A program made the position numbers and the translations under genes. From an uncultured Bdellovibrionales bacterium (GTDB taxonomy: Bacteria; Patescibacteriota; Minisyncoccia; Moranbacterales; UBA1568), in the NCBI GenBank assembly GCA_964594215.1, contig CAZQLN010000002.1:105855-169854 (forward strand): a DNA stretch of 64,000 nucleotides, given 5' to 3'. The notes under the pieces are model-generated. The model had not been told where the DNA came from. It saw only the letters and a list, made by a program, of their open reading frames with translations, and made no database searches. Shown here in pieces: positions 11,993 to 38,506 of this stretch (its first letter is position 1; the number at the start of each line of letters is the position of its first letter).

Positions 11993-12724
11993 CTAGTCGT
12001 GATGTTTATCACGCAGATGAGCCAACAAACGTGCGCAGCCCGCTACTAAAATACCATCAGGCGACTGCGCAATAAGCTCATACCAGGGCATGAAGGTGAT
12101 TTCCGCTTCTTTTTGATGAGATGAAACACCAGCCTTGAAATGTGCTCGGAGATACCGATGTTTGTCCAGCTCAATAGATTCCAGGGGAATCTCCAGTCCG
12201 CTATAACGCACCCCTTCTCCCTTACTGGAATCAGCAAGGAAAAAAAGACGGTCAACACAAACTGGCAAACCCTGAATCACCTTTGGCTTGAAGCTCGCGC
12301 CAAGACCAGCCTCCTCAGAGAGTTCTGCAGCCAAAGCTTCGTCCCTTGAGAGTTTGAGCTCATTCATCCCGCCAATAGCGCAGAAATGTCTGCCGCCCAT
12401 ATTTGGACGTTCTTCGCGGATTGCTCCGATCCAGAGAACTTCGCCCGGATCCCAGAAATACAAGAGACACACTTCACCGCCGCCACTTGGCTGAGCAATG
12501 ATAGGTCCTTGAAAATCTTCCGAACCCTTATTGCGATAACCGAGTGCGAAGACCGTATCGCGGGTCGGATTGTAGAGAATAGCCTGAGATATTTCTGTCC
12601 AATTACCCGACGTACCGACTTTCAGCCGCCATTCACGTTGAGTGTTGGAAATATCATCGGGCTTGCCTAAGAAACCCAAAACCTTTTTCAAGGCTGGTCC
12701 TATTTTGACATCCAAAGACATCAT
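11993..12724 (-). CDS. NUDIX-fold hydrolase-like protein (Nudix box partly degenerate), GC-rich
   Basis: GGMNELKLSRDEALAAELSEEAGL aligns to the Nudix box GX5EX7REUXEEXGU with R to A and E to L substitutions. Start taken at MMSLD with AAGGAG Shine-Dalgarno (ORF track start 12811 would run through the leader element). Confidence 0.5.
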   Translation of the reverse strand: MMSLDVKIGPALKKVLGFLGKPDDISNTQREWRLKVGTSGNWTEISQAILYNPTRDTVFALGYRNKGSEDFQGPIIAQPSGGGEVCLLYFWDPGEVLWIGAIREERPNMGGRHFCAIGGMNELKLSRDEALAAELSEEAGLGASFKPKVIQGLPVCVDRLFFLADSSKGEGVRYSGLEIPLESIELDKHRYLRAHFKAGVSSHQKEAEITFMPWYELIAQSPDGILVAGCARLLAHLRDKHHD

Positions 12725-12753
12725 CTTACTCCTTCTCTCTAAATTGGAAAGGT

Positions 12754-12817
12754 GCCCGTCGTAGAAAAACCTACGAGGATTACGGTCTATCCACGACGGG
12801 CAGAAAATCACCGTAAC
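12754..12817 (-). promoter_or_regulatory. Conserved 5' leader RNA element, copy B
   Basis: GUUACGGUGAUUUUCUGCCCGUCGUGGAUAGACCGU..., followed by a different internal hairpin and then ACGACGGGC; starts 6 nt after the -10 box. Confidence 0.45.
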
Positions 12818-12822
12818 GCTCT

Positions 12823-12851
12823 ATTTTAGCATAAAAAAGCAAAAAAGTCAA
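12823..12851 (-). promoter_or_regulatory. Near-consensus sigma70 promoter TTGACT-17-TAAAAT
   Basis: Minus strand reads TTGACTtttttgcttttttatgcTAAAAT. Confidence 0.55.
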
Positions 12852-12904
12852 TGGCTGGCACTGACTTCTCCTCTTTCAGCAATTTGCTTTATCTAAAGCC
12901 TTAT

Positions 12905-13981
12905 CTATTGGAAAAAGTCTGCTATCTGTCTCACAATGACTAAGGCTGAAAATGCTACAATAATACCAATAATAGCGTACTTCACAATATCCTTACCGGT
13001 ATTAGCCCGCTTCTCATCACCAGCAGAAAGGAAATACATGATGGCTCCAATCAGAAGCATGATGATAGCTAAGACGCCGATAATAGCTAGAAGAAAATTA
13101 AGCACATTGGTAGCTATCTCAGTTAAGGTCAAAGCGCTACTCGCCTGACTTGGTAGATTATTCCAACCCAATACACCTGCCAGTTCCTTGAGGAAGGATG
13201 GCGCTACCATGACAATAGCCAATCCGATAAGGGCGGCTGTGATCGCCGCTTTAGCAGCTCCGACACGCTTATCATTCCCCGCCGAGGTAATGTAAAGAAG
13301 AGCGCCAATGACCAGAAATACTAAGGCTAGTAAAACAACGATATTGCGCATGAAACCGAGAACGCTGTCGAGAAATGTTTCCACCGTGGTGTACTGTGTC
13401 GGTGAATTAAAAGTAATAAGAATAGGTGCTCCAGCTGTAGGAGAAGTTACTCCACCACCGCCAGCAGGCCCACCAGGAGAAGATGGTATACAACACTGTC
13501 CGGAGCTACAGGTACCGTTCTGAGTGCTGCCACTTGGACAAGTTGGATTACAGGTACCTCCTGCATTTGCGCAAGCCGCATCACTAGTTGGAGGTGTCCC
13601 ACTCGGAGCTGGTGGAGTAGTGGCTGGAGACGTGGATACACAACAAACGCTATTATTCCAACTAAAAGCTATTCTTTCATTAGTACCACAACTTGTCGCT
13701 CGTTGCGCCTTCAATTGAGCTACTCTACCATTAGTCCCATTAGGATTAGTACAAACAACCGTATAAGAGAGGCAACAAGACCCATTACCAGCACCAAAAC
13801 AGCCCGAACCCACCTCTTGTTCATCACTATTGCAATTATTAAAAATGCCTGTTCTACAGGTTCCCTGCGCCGCCTTACACTGCTGTGCAGTCATAGGGAT
13901 AATAGCCGAGTAACTAGAGCTCGGAAAAGCAATAACTCCCGTAATAACAAACGCCAAAGTGATGAAAAAATGTTTCTTCAT
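12905..13981 (-). CDS. Secreted Cys-rich protein with two tandem C-terminal TrbC/VirB2-like pilin modules
   Basis: Signal peptide MKKHFFITLAFVITGVIA, Cys/Pro/Thr-rich ectodomain, then two repeats of TM - YITSAGNDKR/FLSAGDEKR - TM matching the adjacent small pilin-like proteins. ORF track 12905..14020; start moved to an internal Met to avoid overlap. Confidence 0.6.
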   Translation of the reverse strand: MKKHFFITLAFVITGVIAFPSSSYSAIIPMTAQQCKAAQGTCRTGIFNNCNSDEQEVGSGCFGAGNGSCCLSYTVVCTNPNGTNGRVAQLKAQRATSCGTNERIAFSWNNSVCCVSTSPATTPPAPSGTPPTSDAACANAGGTCNPTCPSGSTQNGTCSSGQCCIPSSPGGPAGGGGVTSPTAGAPILITFNSPTQYTTVETFLDSVLGFMRNIVVLLALVFLVIGALLYITSAGNDKRVGAAKAAITAALIGLAIVMVAPSFLKELAGVLGWNNLPSQASSALTLTEIATNVLNFLLAIIGVLAIIMLLIGAIMYFLSAGDEKRANTGKDIVKYAIIGIIVAFSALVIVRQIADFFQ

Positions 13982-13982
13982 A

Positions 13983-14489
13983 TTAAAAAGTGTTGCTTTG
14001 GGCAGTAAGAAGTGTTTCAATAGCCTGCAAGATAACTAAACCACTAAGAGCGACAATAACACCAATAATAGCATTGAGCATATTTCTCTTACCCGTCTCT
14101 GCGAGCTTAGCATCCCCTACGGAAGCCAAATACTGCATACCTGAAATCACAAAAGCGATAATAGCGAGCATCCCAACAATAGCTAACAACCAAAACATAA
14201 ACGTCATAAGGATGTTCCCTAATGGCGCGCTAGAAAGGCCAGTATTAGTCGGGAAGCAAACTCCCGCTTCTATGGTTCCATTACATGGAGTTCCTGAAGT
14301 ACTCGTACTTGATCCTCCTCCATTTTGTGTGGAAGTGGCTGCTTGGGCTTGGGCTTCTTGAACAGCCTGGGCTTGTATTTGCGGAGTAATAATATTATTC
14401 AGATTACCCGTTGGAGTCTGTGCCTTTAAAGGCAGTGCCGTGACTATAAAAAAGATTCCTACGAAAAGAAACTGTAAATATTTTTTCAT
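13983..14489 (-). CDS. TrbC/VirB2-like pilin-family membrane protein with short Cys-containing N-terminal region
   Basis: 168 aa; signal peptide, then WLLAIVGMLAIIAFVISGMQYLASVGDAKLAETGKRNMLNAIIGVIVALSGLVILQAIE (two TM helices separated by a short basic loop). Confidence 0.55.
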   Translation of the reverse strand: MKKYLQFLFVGIFFIVTALPLKAQTPTGNLNNIITPQIQAQAVQEAQAQAATSTQNGGGSSTSTSGTPCNGTIEAGVCFPTNTGLSSAPLGNILMTFMFWLLAIVGMLAIIAFVISGMQYLASVGDAKLAETGKRNMLNAIIGVIVALSGLVILQAIETLLTAQSNTF

Positions 14490-14574
14490 ATTACTTTTAG
14501 TTTTTGCTAACCCAATTATACCACAAAAAAACAGCCTCTTCTTGATAAGAGACTGTTTTCATTGAAGACTAAAA

Positions 14575-14946
14575 TTAGAAGTTCGGTTGCCCTGAACCAT
14601 CTAAGAATGTATCAACTGCCTGGATAATTACGAAACCAATAAGGGCTACAATAATACCCGTAATAGCGGCTGTCATAGCGCTCTTGGCGGTACCAACCTT
14701 CTTTTCATCTCCGGCTGCGGTGAGATACAGGATACCAGCGATGACAAAGGCAATGATTCCGATGAAACCAAGAACAGCCAGAAGCCAGTTCATAGCTGTT
14801 TGGATAATACCGATGATAGAACCCTGTGGAAGTTGTGAATTCTGAGCATTGGTTTGTCCGGCTTTCCACTGTGCGTTAGCGAGAGTCGGCATCAAAAGCA
14901 ACACAAAAGCGAGCGCACTGTAGAAATAGTTTTTAACTAATGTCAT
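14575..14946 (-). CDS. TrbC/VirB2-like pilin-family membrane protein
   Basis: 123 aa; signal peptide ...TLANA, then NWLLAVLGFIGIIAFVIAGILYLTAAGDEKKVGTAKSAMTAAITGIIVALIGFVIIQAVD. Confidence 0.55.
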   Translation of the reverse strand: MTLVKNYFYSALAFVLLLMPTLANAQWKAGQTNAQNSQLPQGSIIGIIQTAMNWLLAVLGFIGIIAFVIAGILYLTAAGDEKKVGTAKSAMTAAITGIIVALIGFVIIQAVDTFLDGSGQPNF

Positions 14947-15018
14947 ATTTCTCTCACCTCCTTTCTTTTATTGAGCGTATAGCTCGTTTTTATTTTTTCT
15001 CTTCTGTTTTTTTTCTTT

Positions 15019-15300
15019 TCAGGGTGCAAAGAATGAACTCAACTGACTGACAATAACAAGCGCTCCGAGTGCTACCACTATACCAATAATGGAAAACTGG
15101 AAAGCCTTTTTAGCAAGATCTACTTGCTTCGTATTGCCTAGAGCTGTAAGGTACAAAATCCCCGCAACCACTAGTGCAATTATAGCAAGCACCCCCACGA
15201 TTGACAACAGAAACTGTAAAATATTTTCTAAGATGGTCGTGATGGGAGTGGCATTGGTAATACTTCCCGCATAAACTGTACTAATAAATAGAGCCTTCAT
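15019..15300 (-). CDS. TrbC/VirB2-like pilin-family membrane protein
   Basis: 93 aa; short signal peptide, two TM helices around YLTALGNTKQ, same module as neighbours. Confidence 0.55.
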   Translation of the reverse strand: MKALFISTVYAGSITNATPITTILENILQFLLSIVGVLAIIALVVAGILYLTALGNTKQVDLAKKAFQFSIIGIVVALGALVIVSQLSSFFAP

Positions 15301-15308
15301 TTAATTTA

Positions 15309-15869
15309 TTATTCTTCATTAGAAACTCTGTCATCTACTACATTTGAAAGATCTATCCTGTCAGGACAAAATGAGAGTCCCAGATTCTGACCAGCCAACC
15401 TTCGATTAACTGAACTATTCACTGTTACATCGACGTTGAGCTTACAAGCATCTTCATCAGTTATATTTAATTTATTTATCAGAGCTTGACTTGCTTTTAC
15501 TCTCGTTTCGAGCAAGGGATACTCGTATAGATTAATCAGAAAACGTTGCTCTGTTTTTGAATAGTCTATTGTGTATTCAGGAACAAATGACGGTGCGTCT
15601 GAGTATGGATATTTATCTATTTGGTAAATATTTTCACTTATACTCGGCGCTTGCAATAAAGCCGCATCTATTTTTTCCTGAACTGCTGGTGTTATGGAAA
15701 GCTCTGTTTTTTCCATGGGTAAACCAGTGAAAGTCGCACCCCCTTCAGTAACTCCCGCCTGATCATTTTTTGATACGTCTGCTTCCTTCTCAGTGTTACT
15801 TAAAAAAATTACTGCCAACACCCCTAATGTTAACAATGCGACCGCTGAAATAATAATGACTTTTTTCAT
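15309..15869 (-). CDS. Hypothetical secreted or signal-anchored protein
   Basis: 186 aa, N-terminal hydrophobic segment, no recognisable domain. Confidence 0.45.
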   Translation of the reverse strand: MKKVIIISAVALLTLGVLAVIFLSNTEKEADVSKNDQAGVTEGGATFTGLPMEKTELSITPAVQEKIDAALLQAPSISENIYQIDKYPYSDAPSFVPEYTIDYSKTEQRFLINLYEYPLLETRVKASQALINKLNITDEDACKLNVDVTVNSSVNRRLAGQNLGLSFCPDRIDLSNVVDDRVSNEE

Positions 15870-15875
15870 AGGATT

Positions 15876-16865
15876 TTACTTACAAAAATTGGATGTTGTC
15901 CCTCCTAAATTACAGGTATTAGCACTACAAGCCCAATCTTGCATATCACCCCCCTTGTTACTACTCGATATTTGACAAGCAATTTTTGTATTTACTGCAG
16001 GATCGAAAAGTTTCTGCATGCAAGAGTTAAAAGTGACCTGATTGTTGATTTGACAATTCCAACGAAGACAGATGTTGCGGCTATTCCTTTGAGCACAATT
16101 GCCTTTCGATCCAAGATTTGCACAGCTTGAACTAATTTTTGATCCATGGTCAAAGACATTTATCTGAAAAAGTCCCCCTGAGAAGGCAGACCCATTGGCG
16201 CATCGATCTGTACCACTGACAGCGCTGACATTTCCTCCACCACTTTCCTTATTGCAGAGTTGAGAGAAACGGTCGTTACCGAACGCTGTACAACTGGCCC
16301 CAAGACTAGTAGGGCTACAGGCATTGGTCCCAGTCAAAGCCTTACAAGTCCCCCCACTAGGAGGGGTGCCGCCAGGAGTACCAGCAGTACCAAAATTGGT
16401 TGAACTAGCTGAGCCGGCAGTCGAGTTTGGATCACAGGTAAACGAAAAAGTTCCATTCTGAAAATAACCGCTGAAATAGCCAGAAGATCCGCTAATACGA
16501 ATAATAGTATTCACAATAAGCCACGCACAGAGGATGACGGTTATTCCGATAAGAGCCGCTTTGATACCTCCCTTAGCTGTACTGAGTATTTTCTCATTCC
16601 CCACAGAGACAATATAGAGGATACCCATGGCAAAAATGACTGCGATGCCGATCACTGTCATTACCTTAATAATCCAATCAATAATAATCTTAGCCATATA
16701 GAGCACGTGACACGCGGTACATGGAGCAGTTTCATTGAATTCTGTAACGGGATCATCGGCATTTAAGGCACAGACAACTAGTCCAGCTGCACGTGATACA
16801 GTGGGAACAGTAAAACCTGTAAAAATGGTACTAACAAGAAGTACTGAGAAAAGGATTTGTCTCAT
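15876..16865 (-). CDS. Protein with N-terminal TrbC/VirB2-like pilin module fused to a C-terminal Cys-rich extracellular domain
   Basis: 329 aa; signal peptide, module IIDWIIKVMTVIGIAVIFAMGILYIVSVGNEKILSTAKGGIKAALIGITVIL, then a Cys-rich region with more than 20 Cys. Confidence 0.55.
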   Translation of the reverse strand: MRQILFSVLLVSTIFTGFTVPTVSRAAGLVVCALNADDPVTEFNETAPCTACHVLYMAKIIIDWIIKVMTVIGIAVIFAMGILYIVSVGNEKILSTAKGGIKAALIGITVILCAWLIVNTIIRISGSSGYFSGYFQNGTFSFTCDPNSTAGSASSTNFGTAGTPGGTPPSGGTCKALTGTNACSPTSLGASCTAFGNDRFSQLCNKESGGGNVSAVSGTDRCANGSAFSGGLFQINVFDHGSKISSSCANLGSKGNCAQRNSRNICLRWNCQINNQVTFNSCMQKLFDPAVNTKIACQISSSNKGGDMQDWACSANTCNLGGTTSNFCK

Positions 16866-16913: not shown

Positions 16914-16940
16914 ACAAAAACCCGCCTCTCCCGAGGCGGG
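16914..16940 (-). terminator. Intrinsic terminator after typA
   Basis: cccgcctc-tccc-gaggcggg followed by TTTTTGTTT on the minus strand. Confidence 0.55.
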
Positions 16941-16959: not shown

Positions 16960-18747
16960 TTATTTTTTTCTTCCAGCTTTAGTGCGGTCGGTTTCTCTCA
17001 AAAACTGTTTTCTGAGACGGACTGATTCTGGAGTCACTTCAAGATATTCATCTTCAGCCATAGTCTCCAAACCACGCTCAATAGTAATTTCCCAGGCTGG
17101 AATGATTTTGATAGCTTCATCAGTGCCAGAAGAACGCATGTTGGTAAGTTGTTTTCCTTTAACCGGATTGACTACCATATCACTTCCCTTGGTAACATTA
17201 CCCACTACCATACCTTCATACACTTCAGCTCCCGGCCCCACGTAGAGGACGCCTCGATTTTGGAGGTTATCCAAAGCAAAAGCCAGCACCTTACCGGTGA
17301 TCATAGAGATCATAGAGCCTGTATCACGTTTCTTGATCTCACCAGCATAAGGACGGAAACCAAGTACACGGGTATAGAGAGTCCCTTCGCCACGAGTATC
17401 AATAGTAAACTCTCCACGATAACCAAGGAGACCACGAGTAGGTACTTCGATCAACATACGGGTATAACCGCCACTGCCTTCACGCATATCTGTCATAATA
17501 CCTTTGCGTTTACCCATTTTCTCAATCACGGTACCAGTAGACTCCTGAGGGCACTCGATGGTCACTTCTTCAAACGGTTCTACTTTGACTCCATCCACTT
17601 CTTTGATGATTACCTGGGGCTGAGAAACCTGTACTTCATAACCTTCACGACGCATGTTTTCAAGCAGAATAGCCACATGAAGCTCACCGCGACCAAAAAC
17701 CTTGTAAGAAGCATCTCCAAATTCAATTTTCAGTCCAACGTTAACTTCAAGCTCTTTTTCGAGACGTTCACGAATTTGCTTATTGGTAACAAACTTACCT
17801 TCTCGTCCAGCAAATGGAGAATCATTGACGAAGAAATTAAGAGAAATAGTTGGCTCATCGATAGCAATCGCTGGAAGTAGCTCGGTATCTGGGTCAGCAG
17901 AGATAGTGTCCCCGATTTCAATAGTTGGCAATCCAGCAATCATGACAATGTCACCTGCCGTCACACTCGTTGCCTCGACACGCTCTTGACCATGGAAAGT
18001 GAAAAGCTTAACTACTCTGCCAGTCTCTTTTTTGCCATCAATATTCTGAATATGTACAGGATCATTAACCTTAAGTGTTCCCTGATAGACACGAGCAATA
18101 GCGAGACGGCCAACGAAATTATCGTATCCGAGGTTAAATGGTTGAGCAATAAGAGGTTTGTCTGTTTCTTGACGAGCGGCTGGGACATGACTGATTACGG
18201 TATCAAGCAATGGATCAAGATTTGTACCCTTATCATCTAGAGTCAAACTAGCTACTCCTTCACGAGCAATGGCGTACACTACTGGAAAATCAAGCTGCTC
18301 GTCATTAGCTCCCAAATCCAAGAAAAGCTCATAGACCATCTCAGCCACTTCGTCTGGTCGAGCAGCTGGCTTATCGATTTTGTTTAAGACCACAATTGGA
18401 CGCAAACCAAGTTCAAGAGATTTTTTGAGTACAAAACGAGTCTGTGGCATTGGCCCTTCTTGAGCATCAACTACCAATACCACGCTATCAATAGAACGAA
18501 GAACTCGCTCTACTTCGGAACCAAAATCAGCGTGACCAGGGGTATCGACAATATTGATTTTCGTATCTTTATAATTCAATGAGGCATTTTTGGCATAGAT
18601 AGTAATCCCCCGCTCACGTTCAAGCTGGTTGGAGTCCATAGATCCACCCTCACCTGTAACCATACCCGTTTGACGCATCAAAGCATCAGTAAGGGTTGTC
18701 TTACCATGATCAACATGAGCAATAATCGCAATATTTAGAATTTCCAT
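16960..18747 (-). CDS. typA: Translational GTPase TypA/BipA
   Basis: 595 aa, [14 protein letters not shown]1 motif, EF-G-like domain order but short; typical BipA. Confidence 0.9.
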   Translation of the reverse strand: MEILNIAIIAHVDHGKTTLTDALMRQTGMVTGEGGSMDSNQLERERGITIYAKNASLNYKDTKINIVDTPGHADFGSEVERVLRSIDSVVLVVDAQEGPMPQTRFVLKKSLELGLRPIVVLNKIDKPAARPDEVAEMVYELFLDLGANDEQLDFPVVYAIAREGVASLTLDDKGTNLDPLLDTVISHVPAARQETDKPLIAQPFNLGYDNFVGRLAIARVYQGTLKVNDPVHIQNIDGKKETGRVVKLFTFHGQERVEATSVTAGDIVMIAGLPTIEIGDTISADPDTELLPAIAIDEPTISLNFFVNDSPFAGREGKFVTNKQIRERLEKELEVNVGLKIEFGDASYKVFGRGELHVAILLENMRREGYEVQVSQPQVIIKEVDGVKVEPFEEVTIECPQESTGTVIEKMGKRKGIMTDMREGSGGYTRMLIEVPTRGLLGYRGEFTIDTRGEGTLYTRVLGFRPYAGEIKKRDTGSMISMITGKVLAFALDNLQNRGVLYVGPGAEVYEGMVVGNVTKGSDMVVNPVKGKQLTNMRSSGTDEAIKIIPAWEITIERGLETMAEDEYLEVTPESVRLRKQFLRETDRTKAGRKK

Positions 18748-26473: not shown

Positions 26474-26556
26474 GGGCAAGTGGCGGAATTGGTATACGCG
26501 CTAGTCTTAGGAACTAGTGTCCTTGTGAATTGAGGGTTCGAGTCCCTCCTTGCCCA
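26474..26556 (+). tRNA. tRNA-Leu, anticodon UAG (class II, long variable arm)
   Basis: Acceptor GGGCAAG/CTTGCCC, anticodon stem-loop CTAGT-CTTAGGA-ACTAG, long variable arm, T-arm GGGTTCGAGTCCC. Confidence 0.85.
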
Positions 26557-26560
26557 CATA

Positions 26561-29367: not shown

Positions 29368-30020
29368 TAACGAAGACTTAAGAAAAGAACGTCTGTCAAA
29401 AAAACAATCAAATAGCTCGTAAGGAAAGCATACCACAAAGAACCCGTTTTCTTAGCTACCACACCTGCCATAATTGTAGCTAAGATAAGTGGCGCATCAG
29501 CGCGTGTAATTCCCTCTGTTAACTGGAGTAAAGCTACAAAAAGTATCCCTTGAGCTAATACTGCCTTCCAAGTATTATCAAGCCAAAGTATTTGAATCAT
29601 TCCCCGAAAAAATACCTCATAAATAAAGAGAGTGAATGGTAATAGTGTCAGAGTGTAGAGTGCAAACCAGACAAAGCTTGTCTCAACAAGAACCGGGAAC
29701 AGTACCTCCGAAGTAATAGCGGGATACATATAAACAAGTCCCCAACAAGACAGAAAACCTCCCATAGCCAAAAATACTGACCAGAGGATAGAAATAATGT
29801 GATTAGTGCCCTGAAAACCAAGATTTCTCAAAGGTTCGCGAAGGACGAGGCGGGTATAGGCTATCGGAAGTACCAAAAAGAAAATCAGTGCAATGATGAA
29901 ACCTTGAACAACAGCGCTCAATCCTGTTGATTGCTCGAAAAAAGCAAAAAACAACAGACAAAACACTATCAGTGCTGTCGTTCCAATAAAGCGTTTTTCT
30001 CTGTTACTAAATACACGCAT
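29367..30020 (-). CDS. Polytopic membrane protein, possibly CPBP/CAAX-protease family
   Basis: 217 aa, about 6 TM helices; YEVFFRG resembles CPBP motif 1 (EExxxR). Confidence 0.4.
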   Translation of the reverse strand: MRVFSNREKRFIGTTALIVFCLLFFAFFEQSTGLSAVVQGFIIALIFFLVLPIAYTRLVLREPLRNLGFQGTNHIISILWSVFLAMGGFLSCWGLVYMYPAITSEVLFPVLVETSFVWFALYTLTLLPFTLFIYEVFFRGMIQILWLDNTWKAVLAQGILFVALLQLTEGITRADAPLILATIMAGVVAKKTGSLWYAFLTSYLIVFLTDVLFLSLR

Positions 30021-30652: not shown

Positions 30653-32512
30653 TTAGTATTGATTTTCAGCATCAAAATCTCGTTTAGCATTTTCAATCTC
30701 TAACAACTGCCGTGGATCTGAAGTGATGATCTGATCTTCACTGTAAGATGCTATGACTTTAATAGCAGCGTGTTTGGTACCGGCGAAGAAAATTCCCTCA
30801 CCTACATTACTCTCGAGAAGAAGAAATTTCTCATGATCAGTCAGATAAAACATCTCTGCTACCGCATCAATAGAAGCTGGTGACTGACGGAGTAAGAGTT
30901 GAAGTGAGGAATTAGTAATAATTGGTTTTCCATAACGTGAGGCTAGAAAATCACCTATATCCTGAGTAATCGTTGTCAATCCGGTATAGTATTTGCGGCA
31001 ACGCTTAGCAATACCGAAAAGAAAAGACGCCGCATCTTCATTTTGCATCATCACCCAGGCTTCATCGACTACCACAAGACGCTTCTTAATCTCTGTGCGC
31101 ATCTGATTCCAAATAAACTGCAATACGATATACATGGCCATTGGTCGTAATTCTTCTTCAAGATCACGGATATTGAAGACTACGAGTTGATTTTTGGTCT
31201 CGATGTTCGTCGGTTGATTGAGGAAACCTCCGAAAATACCTTCCGTATAACGTTCCAACCGTAATGCTAAAGACTCTCCCCCATCCATATTTTGTAACAC
31301 TTGATGGAGGTCTGACATGGTGGGAAACATTCCGGGTTCGAGATGGCGGTAATCACTGTGCTCAGTAATATCACGAAGAGCGTACGTTTCCCGAATCGCT
31401 CGATCTAAAATTGAGTCTTCTTCTGGTGTAAGAGTCCCAAACATAATATGAAGCAACCCGATGAGGTTAGCTACTGCACTTCGAAAAACACTCTCGCTAT
31501 CCTCATCATCAACACCTTTCGGTAAATCAAAAGGATTAAGCCGGGCATCAGAATTAAGTGATATTTGGAGAAAGCTCCCTCCTACTGCCTCACAAAGGTG
31601 CTTATACTCATTTTCTGGATCAATAATGATAACGCTAGATCCAAACATCATAGAACGCAGAACTTCTAGCTTCACAGTGTAGCTTTTTCCTGCTCCAGAT
31701 TTAGCAAAAACCACCATATTGGCGTTCTCCTGACTAAAACGATCAAAAAGTACCAGACTATTGTTGTGTCGATTAATACCATATAAGATACCTTCATTAG
31801 AAGAAAGGTCTGACGAAACAAACGGGAAAGTAGTCGATAGTGGTTCTGTATTGAGGTTATTGGCCACATCAAGAACATCGAGGGCTAGGGGTCTGGTCGA
31901 ACGAAAACCCTGATCCATTCTGAGGATAGCTGGCTTAGTGTAAACCAACTGCGCCTCAAGAATTGCTTCAATGGACTGACTTTTCTCATTCAAGTCTTTC
32001 TCGCTTTCCCCATAAAGAGTGATGTACAAACCGAAACGAAAGAACCGCTCCGTCCCCTGTTGTAATTTATCACGTAGACCTTCAATGTCTTCAAGAGCTG
32101 TCTCTAAAACTGGGTTACGGATTTTTCCATCTTCTGCCTCTATCGTAATCTGCGATTGAACTTGAGTGGAAGATTTACGTAAATCCTTTAGGATATCGAC
32201 TGTCTCAATGGGATGGATAAACAAAGCTGTATCCATCGCAAAGTCTACATTGATAATAGGTGAGAACCAGTTGGTACTCAAAAAGCGTGGGTAAGCAATG
32301 ACAAAATAGGTACGCGTCATGACCTCTCCCACCTGAAGGCTATTCGAGGTAAGCTTGATAGCTGGAGGTGCAATAAGATCCTTGAGCGTAGCTAGACCCT
32401 TCTGATACAGAGCCTCATTCTCTGAAACACGCGACGAACCACCAAAGAAACTTCTCTTTGGTTTTTTTGTTTCAGTGTTCTGATTCTCAGAAAGGGAAAT
32501 ACCGGGTAACAT
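30653..32512 (-). CDS. virB4: VirB4/TrbE/CagE-family T4SS ATPase (C-terminal two-thirds)
   Basis: Walker A VVFAKSGAGKSY, Walker B RLVVVDEAW, conserved TTITQD region. Confidence 0.8.
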   Translation of the reverse strand: MLPGISLSENQNTETKKPKRSFFGGSSRVSENEALYQKGLATLKDLIAPPAIKLTSNSLQVGEVMTRTYFVIAYPRFLSTNWFSPIINVDFAMDTALFIHPIETVDILKDLRKSSTQVQSQITIEAEDGKIRNPVLETALEDIEGLRDKLQQGTERFFRFGLYITLYGESEKDLNEKSQSIEAILEAQLVYTKPAILRMDQGFRSTRPLALDVLDVANNLNTEPLSTTFPFVSSDLSSNEGILYGINRHNNSLVLFDRFSQENANMVVFAKSGAGKSYTVKLEVLRSMMFGSSVIIIDPENEYKHLCEAVGGSFLQISLNSDARLNPFDLPKGVDDEDSESVFRSAVANLIGLLHIMFGTLTPEEDSILDRAIRETYALRDITEHSDYRHLEPGMFPTMSDLHQVLQNMDGGESLALRLERYTEGIFGGFLNQPTNIETKNQLVVFNIRDLEEELRPMAMYIVLQFIWNQMRTEIKKRLVVVDEAWVMMQNEDAASFLFGIAKRCRKYYTGLTTITQDIGDFLASRYGKPIITNSSLQLLLRQSPASIDAVAEMFYLTDHEKFLLLESNVGEGIFFAGTKHAAIKVIASYSEDQIITSDPRQLLEIENAKRDFDAENQY

Positions 32513-32519
32513 GGGATTT

Positions 32520-33197
32520 TTAATTAAGTTCTAACTCGTTGACGTGAGCAATATTAGAATTGACGAAAAGAGATGGATTATAACTATCATACAGTAATTC
32601 GATAATTTCTTCCGTGTTAAGAGGGGTGGCTCTCACTCCGGTACCAGAGAGAGCTACTTCAACCTGTTCAACGCGTTGGTATAGTTGGGCTCGATAACTC
32701 TCAAAAAGCTCTCCGTGCAGACTGGTGTTTTTTTCTGGACTGAAGATACCAGAAAGACGATCCAAAAGGCCGCTCTTCTCATCTTCTGCTGGCGAAAAAG
32801 GGATGACGATATAGAAGTACTTAGACATGATATTAGAGATCTCTGCTAACTTTTTGATAAAAAGCTTGTACTCTGTGATCTGCAAACGAAGTAACTCATT
32901 TTCTTGAGTTGTTTCTTGGTCAGCCAAAAGGCCGAGGTACGGCTCAACATCAAAACGCTTAGAGCTGATCACTATCTGGACGGGAAAATCAAGAGTATTC
33001 AAAAAGTTCTGGTATTGCAGAATAATGGCGTCTTGTTCCTGACTTGACTTGAGATCAAAATTAATAGATGAAACCAGCATAATAGCTCGGATAGAGCCAT
33101 TTTTGAGAACTAAAAGACCATCTCGAATCTCTTCGACATCGACATAGCGCTGCGTACTAGCCCCAGCTGTAGTTTGTTTTGGTTTCAAAAATTCCAT
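32520..33197 (-). CDS. VirB4 N-terminal-domain-like protein (VirB4 encoded as two ORFs)
   Basis: 225-aa ORF ending 7 nt before the ATPase ORF; combined length about 840 aa matches a full VirB4; RYVDVEEIRDGLLVLKNGS resembles the VirB4/TraC N-terminus. Confidence 0.5.
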   Translation of the reverse strand: MEFLKPKQTTAGASTQRYVDVEEIRDGLLVLKNGSIRAIMLVSSINFDLKSSQEQDAIILQYQNFLNTLDFPVQIVISSKRFDVEPYLGLLADQETTQENELLRLQITEYKLFIKKLAEISNIMSKYFYIVIPFSPAEDEKSGLLDRLSGIFSPEKNTSLHGELFESYRAQLYQRVEQVEVALSGTGVRATPLNTEEIIELLYDSYNPSLFVNSNIAHVNELELN

Positions 33198-33232: not shown

Positions 33233-33637
33233 TTATTTCCTTCCATCAACTATTCCAGCTAGTTCATGGACCTGTTTAGGATCAAACCTCTTGTGCACTA
33301 CTGTTCCAGTATTCTCATTTGTTTCAGAAGAGCTGGCTTTGGGTAGGGGACTCTGTTCTAGTGGTCTTTCCCAAACAGATACTTTTGGCTGAAAAAGAAA
33401 GAAAACTCCATGCATAGCAAAGGTAATCATAGATATCCCATTCGGTCGATAGAAGGCAAAAAGAACAAAAAGAATAGTGACCGGGATAGCCAGAATAAAA
33501 AAGAGAGTCACATCAAAAATATTGTACAGGGTGAGCAAAACCGCTCCCATGCCAATCATCCAAAGAATCTGTTTCCAAGTCAGTGGGCCGGCTATCTTGT
33601 CTTCAACATCAATAAATTGGGGTACATTGAACATCAT
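33233..33637 (-). CDS. VirB3-like small membrane protein
   Basis: 134 aa, two TM helices, positioned immediately upstream of VirB4 as in other T4SS clusters. Confidence 0.4.
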   Translation of the reverse strand: MMFNVPQFIDVEDKIAGPLTWKQILWMIGMGAVLLTLYNIFDVTLFFILAIPVTILFVLFAFYRPNGISMITFAMHGVFFLFQPKVSVWERPLEQSPLPKASSSETNENTGTVVHKRFDPKQVHELAGIVDGRK

Positions 33638-33652
33638 ACACGTAAAGTATTA

Positions 33653-34987
33653 CTAATCCCTCTGACTAACCGGTCGAATGTGGAACTGACTCGCTCGAGG
33701 TCTTGGTGAAGCGATAGGTGGTACTGCTCCTTTTATTGGTCCTGATGAAACAACTGCTGGTTCTGAAGATACCGGGACCGCTGGCTTCGGAGCCTGCTCT
33801 GATATTTGCGGTGCTGTACTTTTCGGAGGCTTGACCTCCTGCTCTGCTGGTAAGGCATGGTTAAAAGAAAAACTCATACTCCCCACTGCTTTAGCAACAG
33901 GAGCAGTGTCTGGAATACTCTCTTTGGTAAATGCTCCCTTAATCCACTCTGGCTTAGGTTCACGTTTCAGTTTTTCAGCCACTTGACTAACGTCAATGCC
34001 CACATTTGATGTCCCCATACGTTCCGGAGAAAGTGGCTGTGGCGGTATGGAGATTTTCTGATACGGAGATGGCCTAGGCTGAAACTTTCTAGCTATCGCA
34101 TTTTGATCTGCTTGTTTTGAAGGAAGTGGCTGCGGTACAAAGGCTGGCGGGATTGGCAGCTCTGTTTTAAGTGGTTGTGACATTACCTGTATCTCTCCCT
34201 GAGACGGTAACACTGGTAATTGTTGTACACTTGCCTCAGTATCAATAACTGGAAAAATAACTTCTTGACGTTCTGTATCAATCTCCAATGGCAAATTTTC
34301 TTCCAATGACTTAAGAATGATGTTGACCCGCTCCCGTTCAAGAGAACTCAGTGCCTTTCCGTTTACTGAACCGAAAAGAAACTGCCCTCGCTCAACAGTA
34401 GAATGCTGACCAATACCTAACTCGTCACGATAATACTTAATCCAGTTCAAGAGAGATCCTCTCACCGGCTCCGGCTGAGATTTAATTCTAATTCTTTCGC
34501 TAGATATTATCTGGTTACCAAGATTTGGGTATTCTGCAATGGCTTTGAGAATTTGAAGCTTTGTAGTCTCAGCTAGTGGCCTCACAACATCATCTTTCTC
34601 TTCTTCAATTACTTCGTGATCAGGAGAAACCATGAAAACTTTCTGCTGAATATACGGAATAATGGCATCAATATTAACATTGGGAAGTGTGCTGAGTTTT
34701 TGCTTAATAAGATCTAGTGATTGTTGTTGAGTTATTTTCCCAAAAAAGAATTCTCTCGTTATCACTGTTACATATTCCACCAGCTGTTCTGGAAGTTGAT
34801 AGGCTTCTTCTAAACCAGCCAGTACTTCTGCTATCGTACGAGAAAGTAGCCGACTACTACGATTATCATCAAGCGCAAAAACTGCATCCCACACTTCCCG
34901 ACTTTCTTCTTCAGACTGGTTTCCTCCATTCAAATCTTTGGATGCAAACAGCGGGAAATAGATTTTTTTTTCTTCTCTCATACACAT
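33653..34987 (-). CDS. Hypothetical soluble protein with Pro-rich C-terminal half
   Basis: 444-aa ORF in the T4SS-like operon; no TM; no family recognised. Confidence 0.45.
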   Translation of the reverse strand: MCMREEKKIYFPLFASKDLNGGNQSEEESREVWDAVFALDDNRSSRLLSRTIAEVLAGLEEAYQLPEQLVEYVTVITREFFFGKITQQQSLDLIKQKLSTLPNVNIDAIIPYIQQKVFMVSPDHEVIEEEKDDVVRPLAETTKLQILKAIAEYPNLGNQIISSERIRIKSQPEPVRGSLLNWIKYYRDELGIGQHSTVERGQFLFGSVNGKALSSLERERVNIILKSLEENLPLEIDTERQEVIFPVIDTEASVQQLPVLPSQGEIQVMSQPLKTELPIPPAFVPQPLPSKQADQNAIARKFQPRPSPYQKISIPPQPLSPERMGTSNVGIDVSQVAEKLKREPKPEWIKGAFTKESIPDTAPVAKAVGSMSFSFNHALPAEQEVKPPKSTAPQISEQAPKPAVPVSSEPAVVSSGPIKGAVPPIASPRPRASQFHIRPVSQRD

Positions 34988-35018
34988 TTATTCTTCTTTT
35001 GAAATCAAAGCCTACCTC

Positions 35019-37217
35019 CTAAGACACACTACCACCCGTTGGCCCTCGTCGTTTTTTTTCTCTTGTATCTACTGCATTTTTCATTCCTTCAACTTGAACC
35101 CTCACCTCTGGATTCTTGTTGTTCTGAACAACCATCTTCGTCAACTCAGTAACTTCAGTAAGTGTGAAATTTGACTGAGCATATTCTTGGAAATTAGCAT
35201 TCTTAAGTAAAGCGGATTGTTGTGAGAGATCCTTCATAGTTAATTTATGTTGATTATACAGTCCCGCTATTTCATCAGACGACATTGTTGCTAACGGCTT
35301 ATTGCTCTGGTATTCAAAAAGTTTATCGATATCACCTCCCGTTTTCTTAATCTGCTTACCGAAATCAATGGTCATCTTATTACCAGTCTCCGCAATAGCT
35401 TTGTGTCGATCAGTTAACCCAAACTTGCCCTCAGCCTCTTCTCTCGCTTTATCCAAATCATCCCCAGTAATACCACTCGCTGCCGCTTTATTTACGGCAT
35501 CCTCAACCAGTTTCTGCCTTCTTGCTATTTTACTCATGGTATCATCAAGCTCCTTTTTGTTTGCTGGAGCAAAATCGGTTACACCCTTGCTAGCAAGTAA
35601 AGTTTGCATACCAGCCACTTGTGAATCAAAGAACTGTTGTGGCTTCATGCTAATAGCATCATCGTCCGCAGACTTAAGTACTTTCTCAAATTTCTCGTAG
35701 TCACCTGCAACCGCCTGAAGAGCAGCTGCCAAAACCTCTGGACGCTTCTTGATACCATCTTTACTCTCAGCAAGTGAGAGCGCAGCCGCTTTCTTTTCAA
35801 TATCAGTGCCTTTCTTTAGTTTTTCTTCGAGAGCATCCCGAGAGAGATTATCATCTTTGAACTCCTTCATCTTCTCGTGTAAGCGTCTGTCTTCAGCCTT
35901 TTCCTTTTCACGCTGAATACCTCGTGTACCTCCAGATATAGCGCCTGCATAAAACGCCTTGGTGTCATCTGTCCTATCATCCCAGTGCTGACCAGTAGCT
36001 AATCTACCTACATTATATTTATACTTACCAAAACCAACTTTTGCATTTCTGTACTCCCAATTTCCAAGCTGCCCTTTTTGTAGACCCTTACTCACACCCT
36101 TCTTAATGCCTTGATAACGAGTGGTGACTGGGCTGGCAGCTTTCTTACCTGCCCACTTAGCAAAATCTTTACCGTACTTGGTAGCAACTGATGCTCCAGC
36201 AACAGAAAATTTACTAGAAATACCCATCGCAAACCAGAGCATAGTAATAGGAATAAAAAATAAAACCATTGAAGCTACTGTATCTGGCTTGTCCGAAGAA
36301 ACACTAGCTAAACTAGTCACGTTTGCATAAGGATCACCAGCTCCAGAATTCGAGATAGCAGCAAAAAAGTTAGTGGCAAGCAAAAGCATAAAAATGGCTG
36401 CCGGCCCAAAAAAACAATACTTCAAAAAAGCATCCCACCAGTCCTTTCCAAATCCACGCTCCTTAAGTCCTGGTACAGAATTAGCTACAAATCCAATAGG
36501 CGAGAGGATGACCAAGATAATAAGAGCTATAAGACGAATCAAAAACTGAAAAGCGAAAACAAAAATGGTGACATTAAATATAAAAAGAAAAATAATCGCC
36601 GCTAGTAGTGCGGTGATGTCTGAACGTTCTGCTGCTGGTAAAAGAATCATGCTCAGTCGTGATGCACTCAAAGATGACTCCAGAGCCACTGCATTACTAT
36701 TATTACCGGCAATCATTTGCAAGAAGAAGTACATCGGTACATTAGCCAAATCGATAATCAATCGTGCTATAGGGAAGCTAAAATTCACTAGAAGAGCCGC
36801 GATGACAAGCTTGATGATAGACTTGGAATTGCTGTAGCTATCAATTTGAAAAACAAAAGCAAAAGCGATGAAAAGGAGCCCTAGAATAAAAAATATGTTG
36901 ATGAAATCTCTGACAAACTTCCACATATCATACACGGCCTGAAGGTTGAGTAAGCCGCTATCGCCAGAAATATATTGAGGATCTATCACGTAGGCGAAAA
37001 GTGTCACTGCCACACTCGTAAACCAACCAACAAAAACGAAGAGCATGTACAATGCCCCCTTTACCAATCCCTCGCCCCAAAAAGCCTGTGTGGTATGTAA
37101 ATTGAAAGTAAGAAATACTATAGGAAAAATTAAAAAGAAAAGCCCTATTCGTAAGCGTTTCTTCTGTAAATTCATATTTGTTTTTGATCGTAGTGAAGAC
37201 ACAGGCAAACGGTTCAA
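35019..37217 (-). CDS. VirB6/TrbL-like polytopic membrane protein with long hydrophilic C-terminal domain
   Basis: 732 aa; at least 8 TM helices in the N-terminal 380 aa; charged coiled-coil-rich C-terminus. Confidence 0.55.
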   Translation of the reverse strand: MNRLPVSSLRSKTNMNLQKKRLRIGLFFLIFPIVFLTFNLHTTQAFWGEGLVKGALYMLFVFVGWFTSVAVTLFAYVIDPQYISGDSGLLNLQAVYDMWKFVRDFINIFFILGLLFIAFAFVFQIDSYSNSKSIIKLVIAALLVNFSFPIARLIIDLANVPMYFFLQMIAGNNSNAVALESSLSASRLSMILLPAAERSDITALLAAIIFLFIFNVTIFVFAFQFLIRLIALIILVILSPIGFVANSVPGLKERGFGKDWWDAFLKYCFFGPAAIFMLLLATNFFAAISNSGAGDPYANVTSLASVSSDKPDTVASMVLFFIPITMLWFAMGISSKFSVAGASVATKYGKDFAKWAGKKAASPVTTRYQGIKKGVSKGLQKGQLGNWEYRNAKVGFGKYKYNVGRLATGQHWDDRTDDTKAFYAGAISGGTRGIQREKEKAEDRRLHEKMKEFKDDNLSRDALEEKLKKGTDIEKKAAALSLAESKDGIKKRPEVLAAALQAVAGDYEKFEKVLKSADDDAISMKPQQFFDSQVAGMQTLLASKGVTDFAPANKKELDDTMSKIARRQKLVEDAVNKAAASGITGDDLDKAREEAEGKFGLTDRHKAIAETGNKMTIDFGKQIKKTGGDIDKLFEYQSNKPLATMSSDEIAGLYNQHKLTMKDLSQQSALLKNANFQEYAQSNFTLTEVTELTKMVVQNNKNPEVRVQVEGMKNAVDTREKKRRGPTGGSVS

Positions 37218-37315: not shown

Positions 37316-38506
37316 TTAGTAGATATAGCCCTTGATGACACGGCTACTTGCGGGAATAGTCCTTCGTCCTACTTTACCCCATCCAATATAGTTCATATCG
37401 CTTACCGTGATACTCCCCCCACTTACCTTTTCTACTAAGGCTACATGACCATAGTATCGGTTTTCCGTAGTAACCACGATCGCCCCCACCGCTGGACTTT
37501 TACCGGTTTTATAACCCTGAGCTTTGGCGTTATAGAGCCATGTACCGGCATTGCCACCCCATGGTACATACCGTTTTGAAGCCACATACCAAGTACAGTA
37601 ACCATACGGGAAACGGTGCCCACTCCCCGCCTTACCGCTCGGGGTACGGTACCCCGAAATATCATTCACGCTCCCTATACCCGTCGTCGTATTAGCATAC
37701 TGGCGTCGTGTTAGACCCGTTTCAGTCTCTTTTTCGGCCGGCTTAGCAGTTTCTTCTTTACGGCCATCAGGAATAGTGATCGAGGCTCCCACCTCAAGCT
37801 CACCATTAGCTGGTAAAGAGTTAAATGAGATTATTTTTTCCTTATCTGCCTTATATTGCTTAGCAATGTCTTCGATAGTCTCACCACTTTTGACCACATG
37901 ATTGAGACCAGCAACTGGTAGAATGAATATCTGATCACCTGGCTTGATAGCATCCACATTATCGATATCATTGGCCCAAAGAATCGTGTTTACTGTGATA
38001 CCCATTTTAGCCGCAATACCACTCATGGTATCACCATCAAGAACTGTGTAGAGAGTCACTCCTCCACCTTCCTCTTCCGGATCTTTAGTAATATTAGCGG
38101 TAGCCTGAGAGAGAATTACCTGATTATCAAGAGACGTACTTTCCACATCAAACAATGAAAGTTCTTCTTTTTGCTCAGGGTCAACACCTACTTCGGAATC
38201 AGCTAGTGGCACTAGAGCTAGGTTTTTCTTGTTTTCATCTATAACAAAACGATGTTTAGCGCTCGTAGTCTCTTCTTGTTGAGTTTCACCCTCCCCTATA
38301 TATCCAAAAAGGAAGCTCTCTTGACCTTGTCCCTGAGCAAAATTACTAGCAGAAACCATCAAAGCACTCGAGGCAACAATAGAAAAAGCTGAGTAGTTAC
38401 GAAAAACTCGTACCACCCGATACCCCGAAACCTGCTTTACAAAAGTCAGAAAGCGATACTGCAGGGTATGTGTTTTGGTATGCAAGGAGTTCAAACGCTC
38501 TTTCAC
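37316..38506 (-). CDS. Peptidoglycan hydrolase with two LysM domains and a C-terminal CHAP domain (VirB1 functional analogue)
   Basis: LysM repeats (GDTMSGIAAKMGITVNTILWAN..., GETIEDIAKQYKADKEKIISFNS...) and a CHAP Cys...His region (YPYGYCTWYVA...GHVALVEKV). Confidence 0.75.
   Translation of the reverse strand: MKERLNSLHTKTHTLQYRFLTFVKQVSGYRVVRVFRNYSAFSIVASSALMVSASNFAQGQGQESFLFGYIGEGETQQEETTSAKHRFVIDENKKNLALVPLADSEVGVDPEQKEELSLFDVESTSLDNQVILSQATANITKDPEEEGGGVTLYTVLDGDTMSGIAAKMGITVNTILWANDIDNVDAIKPGDQIFILPVAGLNHVVKSGETIEDIAKQYKADKEKIISFNSLPANGELEVGASITIPDGRKEETAKPAEKETETGLTRRQYANTTTGIGSVNDISGYRTPSGKAGSGHRFPYGYCTWYVASKRYVPWGGNAGTWLYNAKAQGYKTGKSPAVGAIVVTTENRYYGHVALVEKVSGGSITVSDMNYIGWGKVGRRTIPASSRVIKGYIY

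Follow-up and report, generated by a model that had tools for sequence, protein, structure and literature searches.

The 64,000-nt stretch of DNA analysed here (the window, to which all coordinates refer unless another locus is named) carries six tightly packed genes on the minus strand at 12905-16865, between bipA (16960-18747) and unknown genes that precede nusA. These genes were lettered E, X, D, C, B and A in their order along the array. Five of them encode pilin-like proteins built around a two-helix membrane hairpin, and the sixth, X, is a non-pilin gene within the array. An earlier note on this DNA had described six copies of one module in five adjacent genes. The six copies and the five genes are borne out by the analyses below, but the genes are not strictly adjacent, X being placed between E and D.

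An ordered set of hairpin genes at a fixed locus

A hidden Markov model (HMM) of the module, trained only on the D, C and B proteins of the window and five related genomes, found exactly six modules in five open reading frames (ORFs) across the entire 64-kb window, and none within the VirB4 cluster described below or elsewhere in the window. The modules absent from the training set were recovered at 2.5e-12 and 3.5e-24 (first and second modules of A) and 8.5e-10 (E). When aligned, the six stretches of about 80 residues stay in register at pairwise identities of 20-45%, and hydropathy places in each of them two transmembrane (TM) helices separated by a short loop bearing Lys or Arg. The loop has the consensus AG(D/N)xK...AK, in which the Lys is invariant. 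In AlphaFold2 (AF2) models, helices span residues 51-86 and 91-126 of E, with a per-residue confidence (pLDDT) of 83-93, and A contains four long helices (200-232, 237-270, 286-318 and 323-357). We conclude that the repeated module is real and not a chance pattern. At the DNA level the module copies are only 60-73% alike, and the paralogs are therefore old; recent gene duplication was rejected on this ground and because every paralog has a positional ortholog.

It had been supposed that each protein starts with a signal peptide. Inspection by eye identified canonical signal peptides in four proteins (...SRA↓AG, ...ANA↓QW, ...LKA↓QT and ...SYS↓A), but D has just a leader of about 11 residues that ends in the conserved sequence (A/V)(H/Q/Y)A↓G. 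In B, C69 and C78 are conserved in all orthologs. A low-complexity insert rich in Gln, Ala, Ser and Thr (...QIQAQAVQEAQAQAATSTQNGGGSSTSTSG...) occupies residues about 30-65 of this protein (14280-14400, minus strand) and is absent from all five B orthologs, which have 131-147 residues compared with 168 in the window.

The gaps between genes measure 6 nt (E-X), 8 nt (X-D), 72 nt (D-C), 85 nt (C-B) and 1 nt (B-A). For A, the probable start codon is the ATG at 13981, a single base past the stop codon of B, rather than the TTG at 14020. The hairpin and U-run after C folds at -18.3 kcal/mol (z -4.5), and none of 200 shuffled sequences folds equally well. As this terminator-like hairpin is followed by an extended -10 element ahead of B, the array would appear to comprise two transcription units, E-X-D-C and B-A, the transcription signals being recognized at the consensus level only. 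Coordinates are collected in the table.

Table. Features of the hairpin array and of the VirB4 cluster in the 64,000-nt window
Feature	Position	Strand	Description
Gene E	15876..16865	-	329 aa; signal peptide, CxxCH segment, single pilin hairpin, G/S/T linker, lysozyme-like domain
Gene X	15309..15869	-	186 aa; non-pilin; N-terminal membrane anchor and conserved C-terminal domain of ~90 aa with two conserved Cys
Gene D	15019..15300	-	93 aa; bare hairpin pilin; short leader 15268-15300
Gene C	14575..14946	-	123 aa; signal peptide, short N-terminal segment, one hairpin
Gene B	13983..14489	-	168 aa; signal peptide, Q/A-rich insert, conserved C-x8-C loop, one hairpin
Gene A	12905..13981	-	358 aa from ATG; signal peptide, three Cys knots with P/T linkers, two tandem hairpins (four TM helices)
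E, N-terminal extracellular CxxCH segment	16707..16787	-	Homolog alignment
E, pilin hairpin	16485..16706	-	Residues about 54-127; module HMM, hydropathy, alignment, AF2 model
E, lysozyme/lytic-transglycosylase-like domain	15879..16352	-	Residues 172-329; putative catalytic Glu207 codon 16245-16247
A, three Cys knots	13484..13888	-	Knot 1 13766-13888 (6 Cys); knot 2 13634-13765 (4 Cys); knot 3 13484-13582 (6 Cys)
A, hairpin module 1	13172..13384	-	Module alignment, AF2 model, module HMM
A, hairpin module 2	12911..13126	-	Module alignment, AF2 model, module HMM
Terminator-like GC-rich hairpin and U-run after bipA	16921..16940	-	Separates array from bipA
Terminator-like hairpin after C, then extended -10 before B	14515..14555	-	Hairpin 14525-14555; TGgTATAAT 14515-14523; fold, promoter read by eye
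Terminator-like hairpin after A	12841..12871	-	End of array
Split VirB4-like ATPase	30653..33197	-	TrsD-like 225 aa (32520-33197) and 619-aa CD1110-family ATPase (30653-32512)
PrgI/VirB3-like protein	33233..33637	-	PF12666 PrgI
444-aa protein	within 33233..37217	-	Between PrgI/VirB3-like and VirB6-like genes; function unassigned
VirB6-like polytopic protein	35019..37217	-	732 aa; ~7-8 TM segments in residues 20-335 (hydropathy)
LysM+CHAP cell-wall hydrolase	37316..38506	-	End of VirB4 cluster; PF01476 and PF05257

Exact copies of E, D, X and BipA were found on an NCBI contig and on Logan contigs, and relatives are named Candidatus (Ca.) Moranbacteria or Moraniibacteriota. Five relatives, with E proteins 43-75% identical to that of the window, share the gene order bipA, E, X, D, C, B, A, two unknown genes, nusA. 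Each of their genes finds its best match at the equivalent position of the window (D 42-86%, B 43-83%, A 39-78% and C, the most conserved paralog, 46-91%), and matches across paralogs stay at about 30-50%. The flanking genes have housekeeping functions (BipA, a solute-binding protein, NusA, pyrophosphatase, trigger factor and ClpP). In a survey of one genome per GTDB species, relatives of the double-hairpin protein A (the double pilin) were present in 147 species representatives, nearly all from Moraniibacteriota. Four single pilins and one double pilin were found in 18 of the 32 fetched loci that have both flanks; the range across fetched loci is zero to six single and one or two double pilins. 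Overall, the locus is fixed in Ca. Moraniibacteriota with a modal make-up of four single pilins and one double pilin, which the window shares, and within the lineage of the window it holds an ordered, non-redundant set.

These comparisons bear on the idea that the paralogs are interchangeable major pilins serving antigenic or host-range variation, in the manner proposed for the VirB2 arrays of Bartonella and Anaplasma, as has been suggested for Patescibacteria (PMC12102498). The low identity among paralogs (20-45%) and the copy-number range across the phylum are in keeping with this idea, and the terminator and promoter between C and B would permit separate expression. In the five genomes, however, positional orthologs are far closer to one another than paralogs are. 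The paralogs also differ in architecture and not just in sequence, and the variable parts are the E ectodomain, X and the A knots rather than the hairpins. Positional orthologs in a fixed, ordered set argue against interchangeable antigenic variants, so that simple antigenic variation by five such non-redundant pilins seems quite improbable. The comparison of copy number proposed in the earlier note thus revealed an array that does not vary in copy number within the lineage of the window.

Two further observations concern the locus and its records. Many metagenome-assembled genome (MAG) records titled 'uncultured Bdellovibrionales bacterium' (L009, L012-L014, L023 and others) contain a locus of the Moraniibacteriota type with the same synteny, and the titles of such records look taxonomically wrong. 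In addition, a 272-aa gene (11993-12811, minus strand) with no family match lies between A and the conserved downstream genes; since it has no counterpart at this position in five related loci, it looks like an insertion in this genome.

Pilin families and the probable partner secretion system

The hairpin proteins were compared with two Pfam pilin families, PF18895 (T4SS_pilin; gathering cutoff 26.6 bits) and PF04956 (TrbC/VirB2; 27.9 bits), the first named after type IV secretion systems (T4SSs). PF18895 was passed by A (79 bits, in two stretches), D (47.2), B (35.1) and C (26.9), and many homologs of E carry this family in the precomputed table. PF04956, the profile proposed as a check in the earlier note, was passed by D only, with 34.0 bits and an E-value of 3.5e-8; A, B, C and E gave no match to it. 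Precomputed tables also assign PF04956 to the orthologs of D in five other genomes, three strongly and two weakly. Matches in NCBIfam were all below threshold and were to a 'pilin-like conjugal transfer protein' of a Mycoplasma integrative and conjugative element (ICE). A has more than 270 homologs, to which NCBI gives the name 'pilin [Ca. Moranbacteria]'. As judged from hydropathy, alignment and AF2 models, D and the other hairpin proteins fit the description of TrbC/VirB2, namely small size, a leader and two hydrophobic helices joined by a short basic loop. Taken at the level of sequence, these results support the assignment of the module to a VirB2/TrbC-like pilin superfamily. Type IV pilins of the GFxxxE class were rejected because the proteins have no GFxxxE motif and no PilD-type processing and belong to an unrelated fold family; the lack of this prepilin motif had already led the earlier note to the same view.

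A different reading would make the array a lysis or bacteriocin cassette composed of holin-like two-TM proteins and a muramidase. Small two-TM proteins do stand beside a lysozyme-like domain (see below), and weak matches to Saf_2TM and other TM families were obtained, all of them sub-cutoff; no holin or other membrane-protein family scored above its own cutoff. Against such a cassette are the chromosomal locus, fixed between bipA and nusA across the whole phylum and devoid of phage genes, the signal peptides and the pilin families matched above cutoff. We have rejected this reading as having a negligible probability. With a pilin profile matched and no holin-type family above cutoff, the interpretation of the array as pilins survives.

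The components with which the pilins might work belong to the VirB4 cluster, at 13.8-20 kb from the array. VirB4 itself is encoded at a distance of 13.8 kb, in agreement with the earlier placement of the array about 14 kb from, and not inside, a VirB4/VirB6 operon. The 619-aa ATPase matches NF045971 at 356 bits (cutoff 325) as well as PF19044, and there are TrsD and VirB4 N-terminal matches. From topology only, we infer that the 732-aa protein is VirB6-like. The split into TrsD and VirB4 and the list of components match the published arrangement in Patescibacteria (PMC12102498).

The VirB4 cluster is bracketed by tRNA-Leu (26474-26557, plus strand) and a tyrosine-recombinase/integrase gene (38641-39762, plus strand). 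A search for att-like direct repeats shared by tRNA-Leu and the integrase side of the cluster was negative, and hence nothing points to the T4SS being an element that integrated recently. Next to the cluster is a gene for an Rce1-like CAAX/CPBP intramembrane protease (29367-30020, minus strand), a possible processing enzyme for the short, conserved D leader (...A↓G). A 944-aa protein at the edge of the T4SS cluster (26602-29436, minus strand) contains 22 Cys and has TM segments at both ends; it gave no Pfam or NCBIfam match and may be a surface protein.

Domains carried by the E and A hairpins

In the AF2 model of E, a disordered linker of about 45 residues precedes a structured C-terminal domain of about 158 residues (172-329) predicted with pLDDT >90. 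The protein contains 19 Cys in total, 15 of them after residue 140, and the earlier estimate of a domain of roughly 230 residues with more than 20 Cys has been revised to these values. Among 81 E homologs, the recurring architectures combine PF18895 with either PF18896 (SLT_3) or PF01464. Outside the hairpin, E207, S208, G231 and Q234 are invariant in 45 E homologs, L232 is present in at least 90% and several Cys are nearly invariant. The conserved pattern E-S ... G-L-x-Q is the signature of family-1 lytic transglycosylases and lysozymes. With a profile of E, the motifs could be aligned with those of human lysozyme C and EmtA, at weak E-values of 0.008-0.06, and the domain has a lysozyme-like predicted fold. 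At the position of the second catalytic carboxylate of glycoside hydrolase family 22 (GH22; Asp52/53, two residues before the G of GI(L/F)QIN), E has Ser229, around which the family consensus is S-x-G-L-F-Q. For this reason the domain was not filed as GH22, despite GH22 being its best structural match. Homolog Pfam matches and the ES/GLxQ motifs thus identify a lysozyme/lytic-transglycosylase-like domain, a putative enzyme, in place of the anonymous adhesin domain envisaged earlier.

E-type pilins occupy the first position in many arrays, and their C-terminal domains are modular, being SLT_3-like, canonical SLT (the positional equivalent of E in locus L031 matches PF01464 at 41.8 bits), a third Cys-rich type, Ig-like or InlB B-repeat. 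Members of the third type (L010:6375-7343, L035:5013-5936 and L038:3207-5327) contain motifs of the form ...IIDGGEGCNK...CGYSQ(A/V)(L/M)P..., which by eye mimic ES/GLxQ. Comparison of this type with the SLT_3 type by hhalign was not significant, and paired GE with ES and GYSQ with GLFQ.

Just before its first helix, E carries the motif G-L-V-x-C-[GA]...P-C-T-x-C-H (C32, C49, C52 and H53). CxxCH is found in 33 of 45 E homologs. Of 22 single-hairpin pilins extended at the C-terminus by 100 residues or more, 21 contain it, compared with 14 of 227 short single pilins and none of 87 double pilins. The motif resembles a heme-c attachment site and is nearly confined to ectodomain-carrying pilins in first position.

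Closely related strains differ in this part of the array. The homolog P0005 is identical to residues 1-153 of E in the window save for two residues of the signal peptide, and beyond a breakpoint in the G/S linker the identity is about 33%. In locus L089 (positions 1235-2733, compared with 15309-16352 of the window), BipA and pilin C are 99% identical to those of the window. The E hairpin of this locus is 82% identical and the enzyme domain 38%, X is 36% identical, and in D the short leader is replaced, with the mature part nearly identical. Identities of 38% and 36% amid flanks of 99% indicate that the E domain and X are swapped as a pair among near-identical strains. At its N-terminus X has a TM segment, and it contains no pilin module. 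A homolog search with X returned five database proteins only, and neither X nor its profile has a Pfam, NCBIfam or PDB relative. By analogy, the co-variation of X with the enzyme domain resembles the pattern of peptidoglycan-hydrolase effectors and their immunity proteins, a lead which makes X look like a partner of the E enzyme.

The ectodomain of A had been described as a Cys/Pro/Thr-rich region ahead of two tandem modules. The tandem modules were confirmed, and the ectodomain is recast here as a series of Cys knots, separated by P/T-rich linkers, that resemble beta-defensins. Knot 3 has the strict pattern C-x6-C-x3-C-x9-C-x4-CC. Among 87 double pilins from 80 loci, an N-terminal CC is present in 62 and the strict six-Cys pattern in 42, with zero to three copies in each; knot-type domains of the double pilin also occur in loci L009-L088. 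In isolation, knot 3 scores 26.8 bits against PF00711 (Defensin_beta; cutoff 21), and full-length A scores 20.3 bits, just under cutoff. PF00711 is matched by 11 of 45 knots and PF13841 by four of the 45 (E-values up to 0.1). When a profile of the 45 knots was searched against every PDB sequence, 23 of its 24 matches were vertebrate beta-defensins (hBD-1 at 1.2e-4), and the alignments run end to end, including the GGxC, CP, GTC and CCK positions.

As a control, the non-Cys residues of five defensins were shuffled 500 times with the Cys fixed. For four of them the score collapsed from 21-25 to 3-5 bits (z 3.4-4.2), and the real score was equalled by at most one of the 500 shuffles, so that for these four the match exceeds cysteine spacing. 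The fifth showed no separation (z 1.1), its real score being equalled by 68 of 500 shuffles; three of the control sequences, the fifth among them, had been entered by hand. AF2 predicts a short helix and three strands for each knot, with the Cys in the elements expected for beta-defensins and a pLDDT of 84-89 for knot 3. The disulfides of beta-defensins connect C1-C5, C2-C4 and C3-C6. Four-Cys knots, among them knot 2 of the window, lack C2 and C4 together, and this joint loss fits a C2-C4 bond; the tally of Cys-column patterns, made from local HMM alignments, consisted largely of fragments and gave no usable result beyond this joint loss. When the A ectodomain was used as the query of an exhaustive phmmer search of 1.84 billion representatives, a single protein was returned, as this region is too divergent for searching with one sequence.

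Membership of the beta-defensins proper is opposed by the net charge of the knots, which runs from -5 to +1 with a mode of -1 and is thus not cationic, and by their setting, 37 of the 38 knot-bearing ORFs in the fetched loci being pilins. The knots are bacterial, fused to pilins and anionic or neutral, in place of the small, free, cationic peptides of animals. We therefore describe the A ectodomain as predicted six-Cys knots of beta-defensin-like type, related to beta-defensins by homology or convergence and with disulfides that are likewise predicted. Relatives with only 30-47% identity in the A ectodomain retain 75-81% identity across the two hairpins and their intervening linker, and hence the hairpins change far more slowly than the ectodomains, which evolve fast or recombine. 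The ectodomains, represented by the A knots and the E domain, are indeed the variable parts of these proteins. Of the earlier proposal of variable tips or adhesins, variability is upheld in these fast-evolving ectodomains, and the adhesin reading gives way, for E, to the lysozyme-like domain.

A proposed surface organelle and its relation to known systems

Taken together, we consider it fairly probable that the array is the pilin operon of a chromosomal, monoderm-type T4SS, similar to the mating-pair formation (MPF) class FATA, of Ca. Moraniibacteriota (Patescibacteria/CPR), and that its pilus or stalk subunits display an enzyme and knots. The family assignments are held with more confidence than the roles of the subunits. 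Insertion by the Sec pathway would leave both protein ends outside and the K/R loop in the cytoplasm, and, with both ends outside, the disulfide-rich domains would face outward. The split VirB4, PrgI/VirB3-like and VirB6-like proteins could then extract the hairpins from the membrane and assemble them into a pilus or short stalk. D, the smallest protein and the only direct TrbC match, might be the major subunit, with C and B as minor subunits. E would bring a muramidase to the assembly site or tip, where it might supply the VirB1 function or attack the host cell wall. A, with its variable knots, could be a tip or base element contacting the partner cell, and X a cognate partner of the E enzyme domain, either an inhibitor/immunity protein or an adaptor.

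Several points weigh against this picture. E itself scores 18.2 bits on PF18895, under the cutoff, and 24.0 bits on PF18896 (SLT_3), below the cutoff of 27. A profile of 18 D, C and B orthologs searched against all PDB sequences gave no match to a VirB2/TraA pilin, and Foldseek returned only non-significant helical hairpins, with an archaeal conjugation pilin (8dfu) at an E-value of 4.7; the helical hairpin is a non-specific fold. The array is not adjacent to virB4. The LysM+CHAP wall hydrolase is already present in the VirB4 cluster, and for that reason E need not be a VirB1 equivalent. The roles of major, minor and tip subunits are drawn solely from size, conservation and analogy. In addition, a T4SS pilus has yet to be observed in a patescibacterium, and VirB2 is normally missing from T4SSs of the Gram-positive type (PMC12857230).

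Some of these features could also be accommodated if the hairpins do not polymerize, and instead form two-helix anchors, or channel or stalk parts of fixed stoichiometry, that hold surface domains on a T4SS with no extended pilus. Pili are lacking from monoderm T4SSs (PMC12857230). A fixed set of five distinct, orthologous paralogs looks more like a hetero-oligomer than a homopolymer with variants, and a double hairpin and large fusions would be awkward in a tightly packed pilus lattice. E-type hairpins bear many unrelated ectodomains, and the weak NCBIfam matches are to a Mycoplasma ICE protein, from organisms without walls or known pili. On the other hand, D passes the TrbC/VirB2 cutoff, and a bare hairpin of 93 residues has nothing to anchor. 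Both termini point outward in solved conjugative pili, and outward termini make terminal fusions sterically possible. Homologous series have been read as pilins by Wang et al. (2023) and in a 2025 review. The anchor arrangement is a tentative possibility, on the unlikely side, and assembly into a pilus or stalk remains the interpretation that we prefer.

Within the preferred picture of a pilin operon, the distinctive parts might be joined in a single hypothesis. The organelle would breach the host wall, E would be a polymorphic muramidase effector tethered to a hairpin, X would be its immunity protein or inhibitor, the two would be swapped as one cassette, and the knots would represent a true or independently invented beta-defensin (trans-defensin) fold acting as a host-binding tip rather than as an antimicrobial peptide. 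In its entirety this combination is speculative and rather unlikely. The T4SS and its series of pilins are essential for the epibiotic life of the sole genetically tractable patescibacterium, and their function has been called completely unknown (PMC11665869, PMC10633639). Most genomes with VirB2 have no detectable VirB1 (PMC12102498). The pilin-tethered domain of E is a candidate for the VirB1 function, and it could be either this 'missing VirB1' or a weapon against the host wall.

The lysozyme-like domain has counterparts in the VirB1-type lytic transglycosylases (VirB1, pIP501 TraG, PrgK and TcpG), and in family-1 enzymes such as EmtA/MltE and Slt70, with which it shares ES...GLxQ and the lysozyme-like fold. 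The genomic association with a T4SS, which E has in common with VirB1-type enzymes, suggests local opening of peptidoglycan. Effector-immunity pairs such as the X-Tfe/X-Tfi pairs of the Xanthomonas T4SS and the Tse3/Tsi3-type pairs of type VI secretion systems consist of antibacterial muramidases and cognate immunity proteins. As in these pairs, the hydrolase domain of E is directly followed by a small, exported, fast-evolving gene, and the two are replaced as a unit; in contrast to X-Tfe proteins, E has no secretion signal of that type and is joined to a pilin, and no homolog of X is known. The knots share C-x6-C-x3/4-C-x9-C-x4-6-CC, GxC, G(T)C and the predicted topology with the trans-defensins, which comprise the beta-defensins of vertebrates and the big defensins of invertebrates. 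Beta-defensins are cationic, free peptides of animals, whereas the knots are bacterial, occur in zero to three copies at the N-terminus of a membrane pilin and mostly have a charge of -1 to -2. Trans-defensins are regarded as restricted to animals, bacteria being credited with cis-defensins only (PMC11561630). Among the papers listed in a literature search, none linked defensins with Patescibacteria, and a bacterial beta-defensin-like domain would bear on the origin of trans-defensins.

With regard to the hairpins, the VirB2/TrbC/TraA pilins of Gram-negative bacteria share a signal or leader, two hydrophobic helices and a short basic loop with the window proteins, of which D passes the TrbC profile. 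Unlike those systems, the window belongs to a monoderm with no VirB5/7/9/10, and has five paralogs, terminal fusions of up to about 200 residues and a tandem duplication; no sequence or Foldseek link connects its hairpins to solved subunits, nor is there evidence of cyclization. Type IV pili and the pseudopili of type II secretion systems offer an analogy only, in that a small abundant subunit is combined with conserved, non-interchangeable minor ones, one of which has a large tip domain; they belong to an unrelated fold family and rely on the GFxxxE motif and PilD-type processing, both lacking in the window.

The closest parallels are the arrays of Patescibacteria themselves. Wang et al. (2023; PMC10633639) described predicted pilins that form an essential series within the Ca. 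Southlakia T4SS cluster, and a scan of 3,035 genomes with the same two Pfam models, PF18895 and PF04956, catalogued 441 arrays of 2-11 pilins in Patescibacteria, with a pilin gene near virB4 in only 1,135 of 1,948 assemblies (Quinonero-Coronel et al., 2025; PMC12102498). A 2025 FEMS review treats these arrays as the sole exception to the absence of VirB2 from Gram-positive-type systems (PMC12857230). The array itself is thus not new, VirB2 arrays of Patescibacteria, including ones away from virB4, having been published (PMC12102498, PMC10633639, PMC12857230). We found no published account of a fixed four-plus-one composition in which each pilin has its positional ortholog, nor of the double hairpin, the fusion to a lysozyme-like domain, the cassette of E and X or the knots of defensin type. 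Three features appear to be undescribed, namely the tethering of a lysozyme-like domain to a pilin, the E-X cassette and a double pilin that bears beta-defensin-like knots. As in the window, the arrays of Ca. Southlakia epibionticum ML1 (SEML1_0006-0019), TM7x and the 441 catalogued cases consist of tandem, divergent PF18895/PF04956 pilins, sometimes with a non-pilin interruption, and are chromosomal and associated with a relaxase-less, monoderm-type T4SS (split VirB4/TrsD, PrgI and VirB6). The average identity within published arrays is about 25% (PMC12102498), compared with 20-45% in the window, which differs from them in lying 14 kb from virB4, at a conserved bipA-nusA locus. The basic classification is unchanged by our analysis, and the array represents a known feature of Patescibacteria, here in a well-conserved Moraniibacteriota variant.

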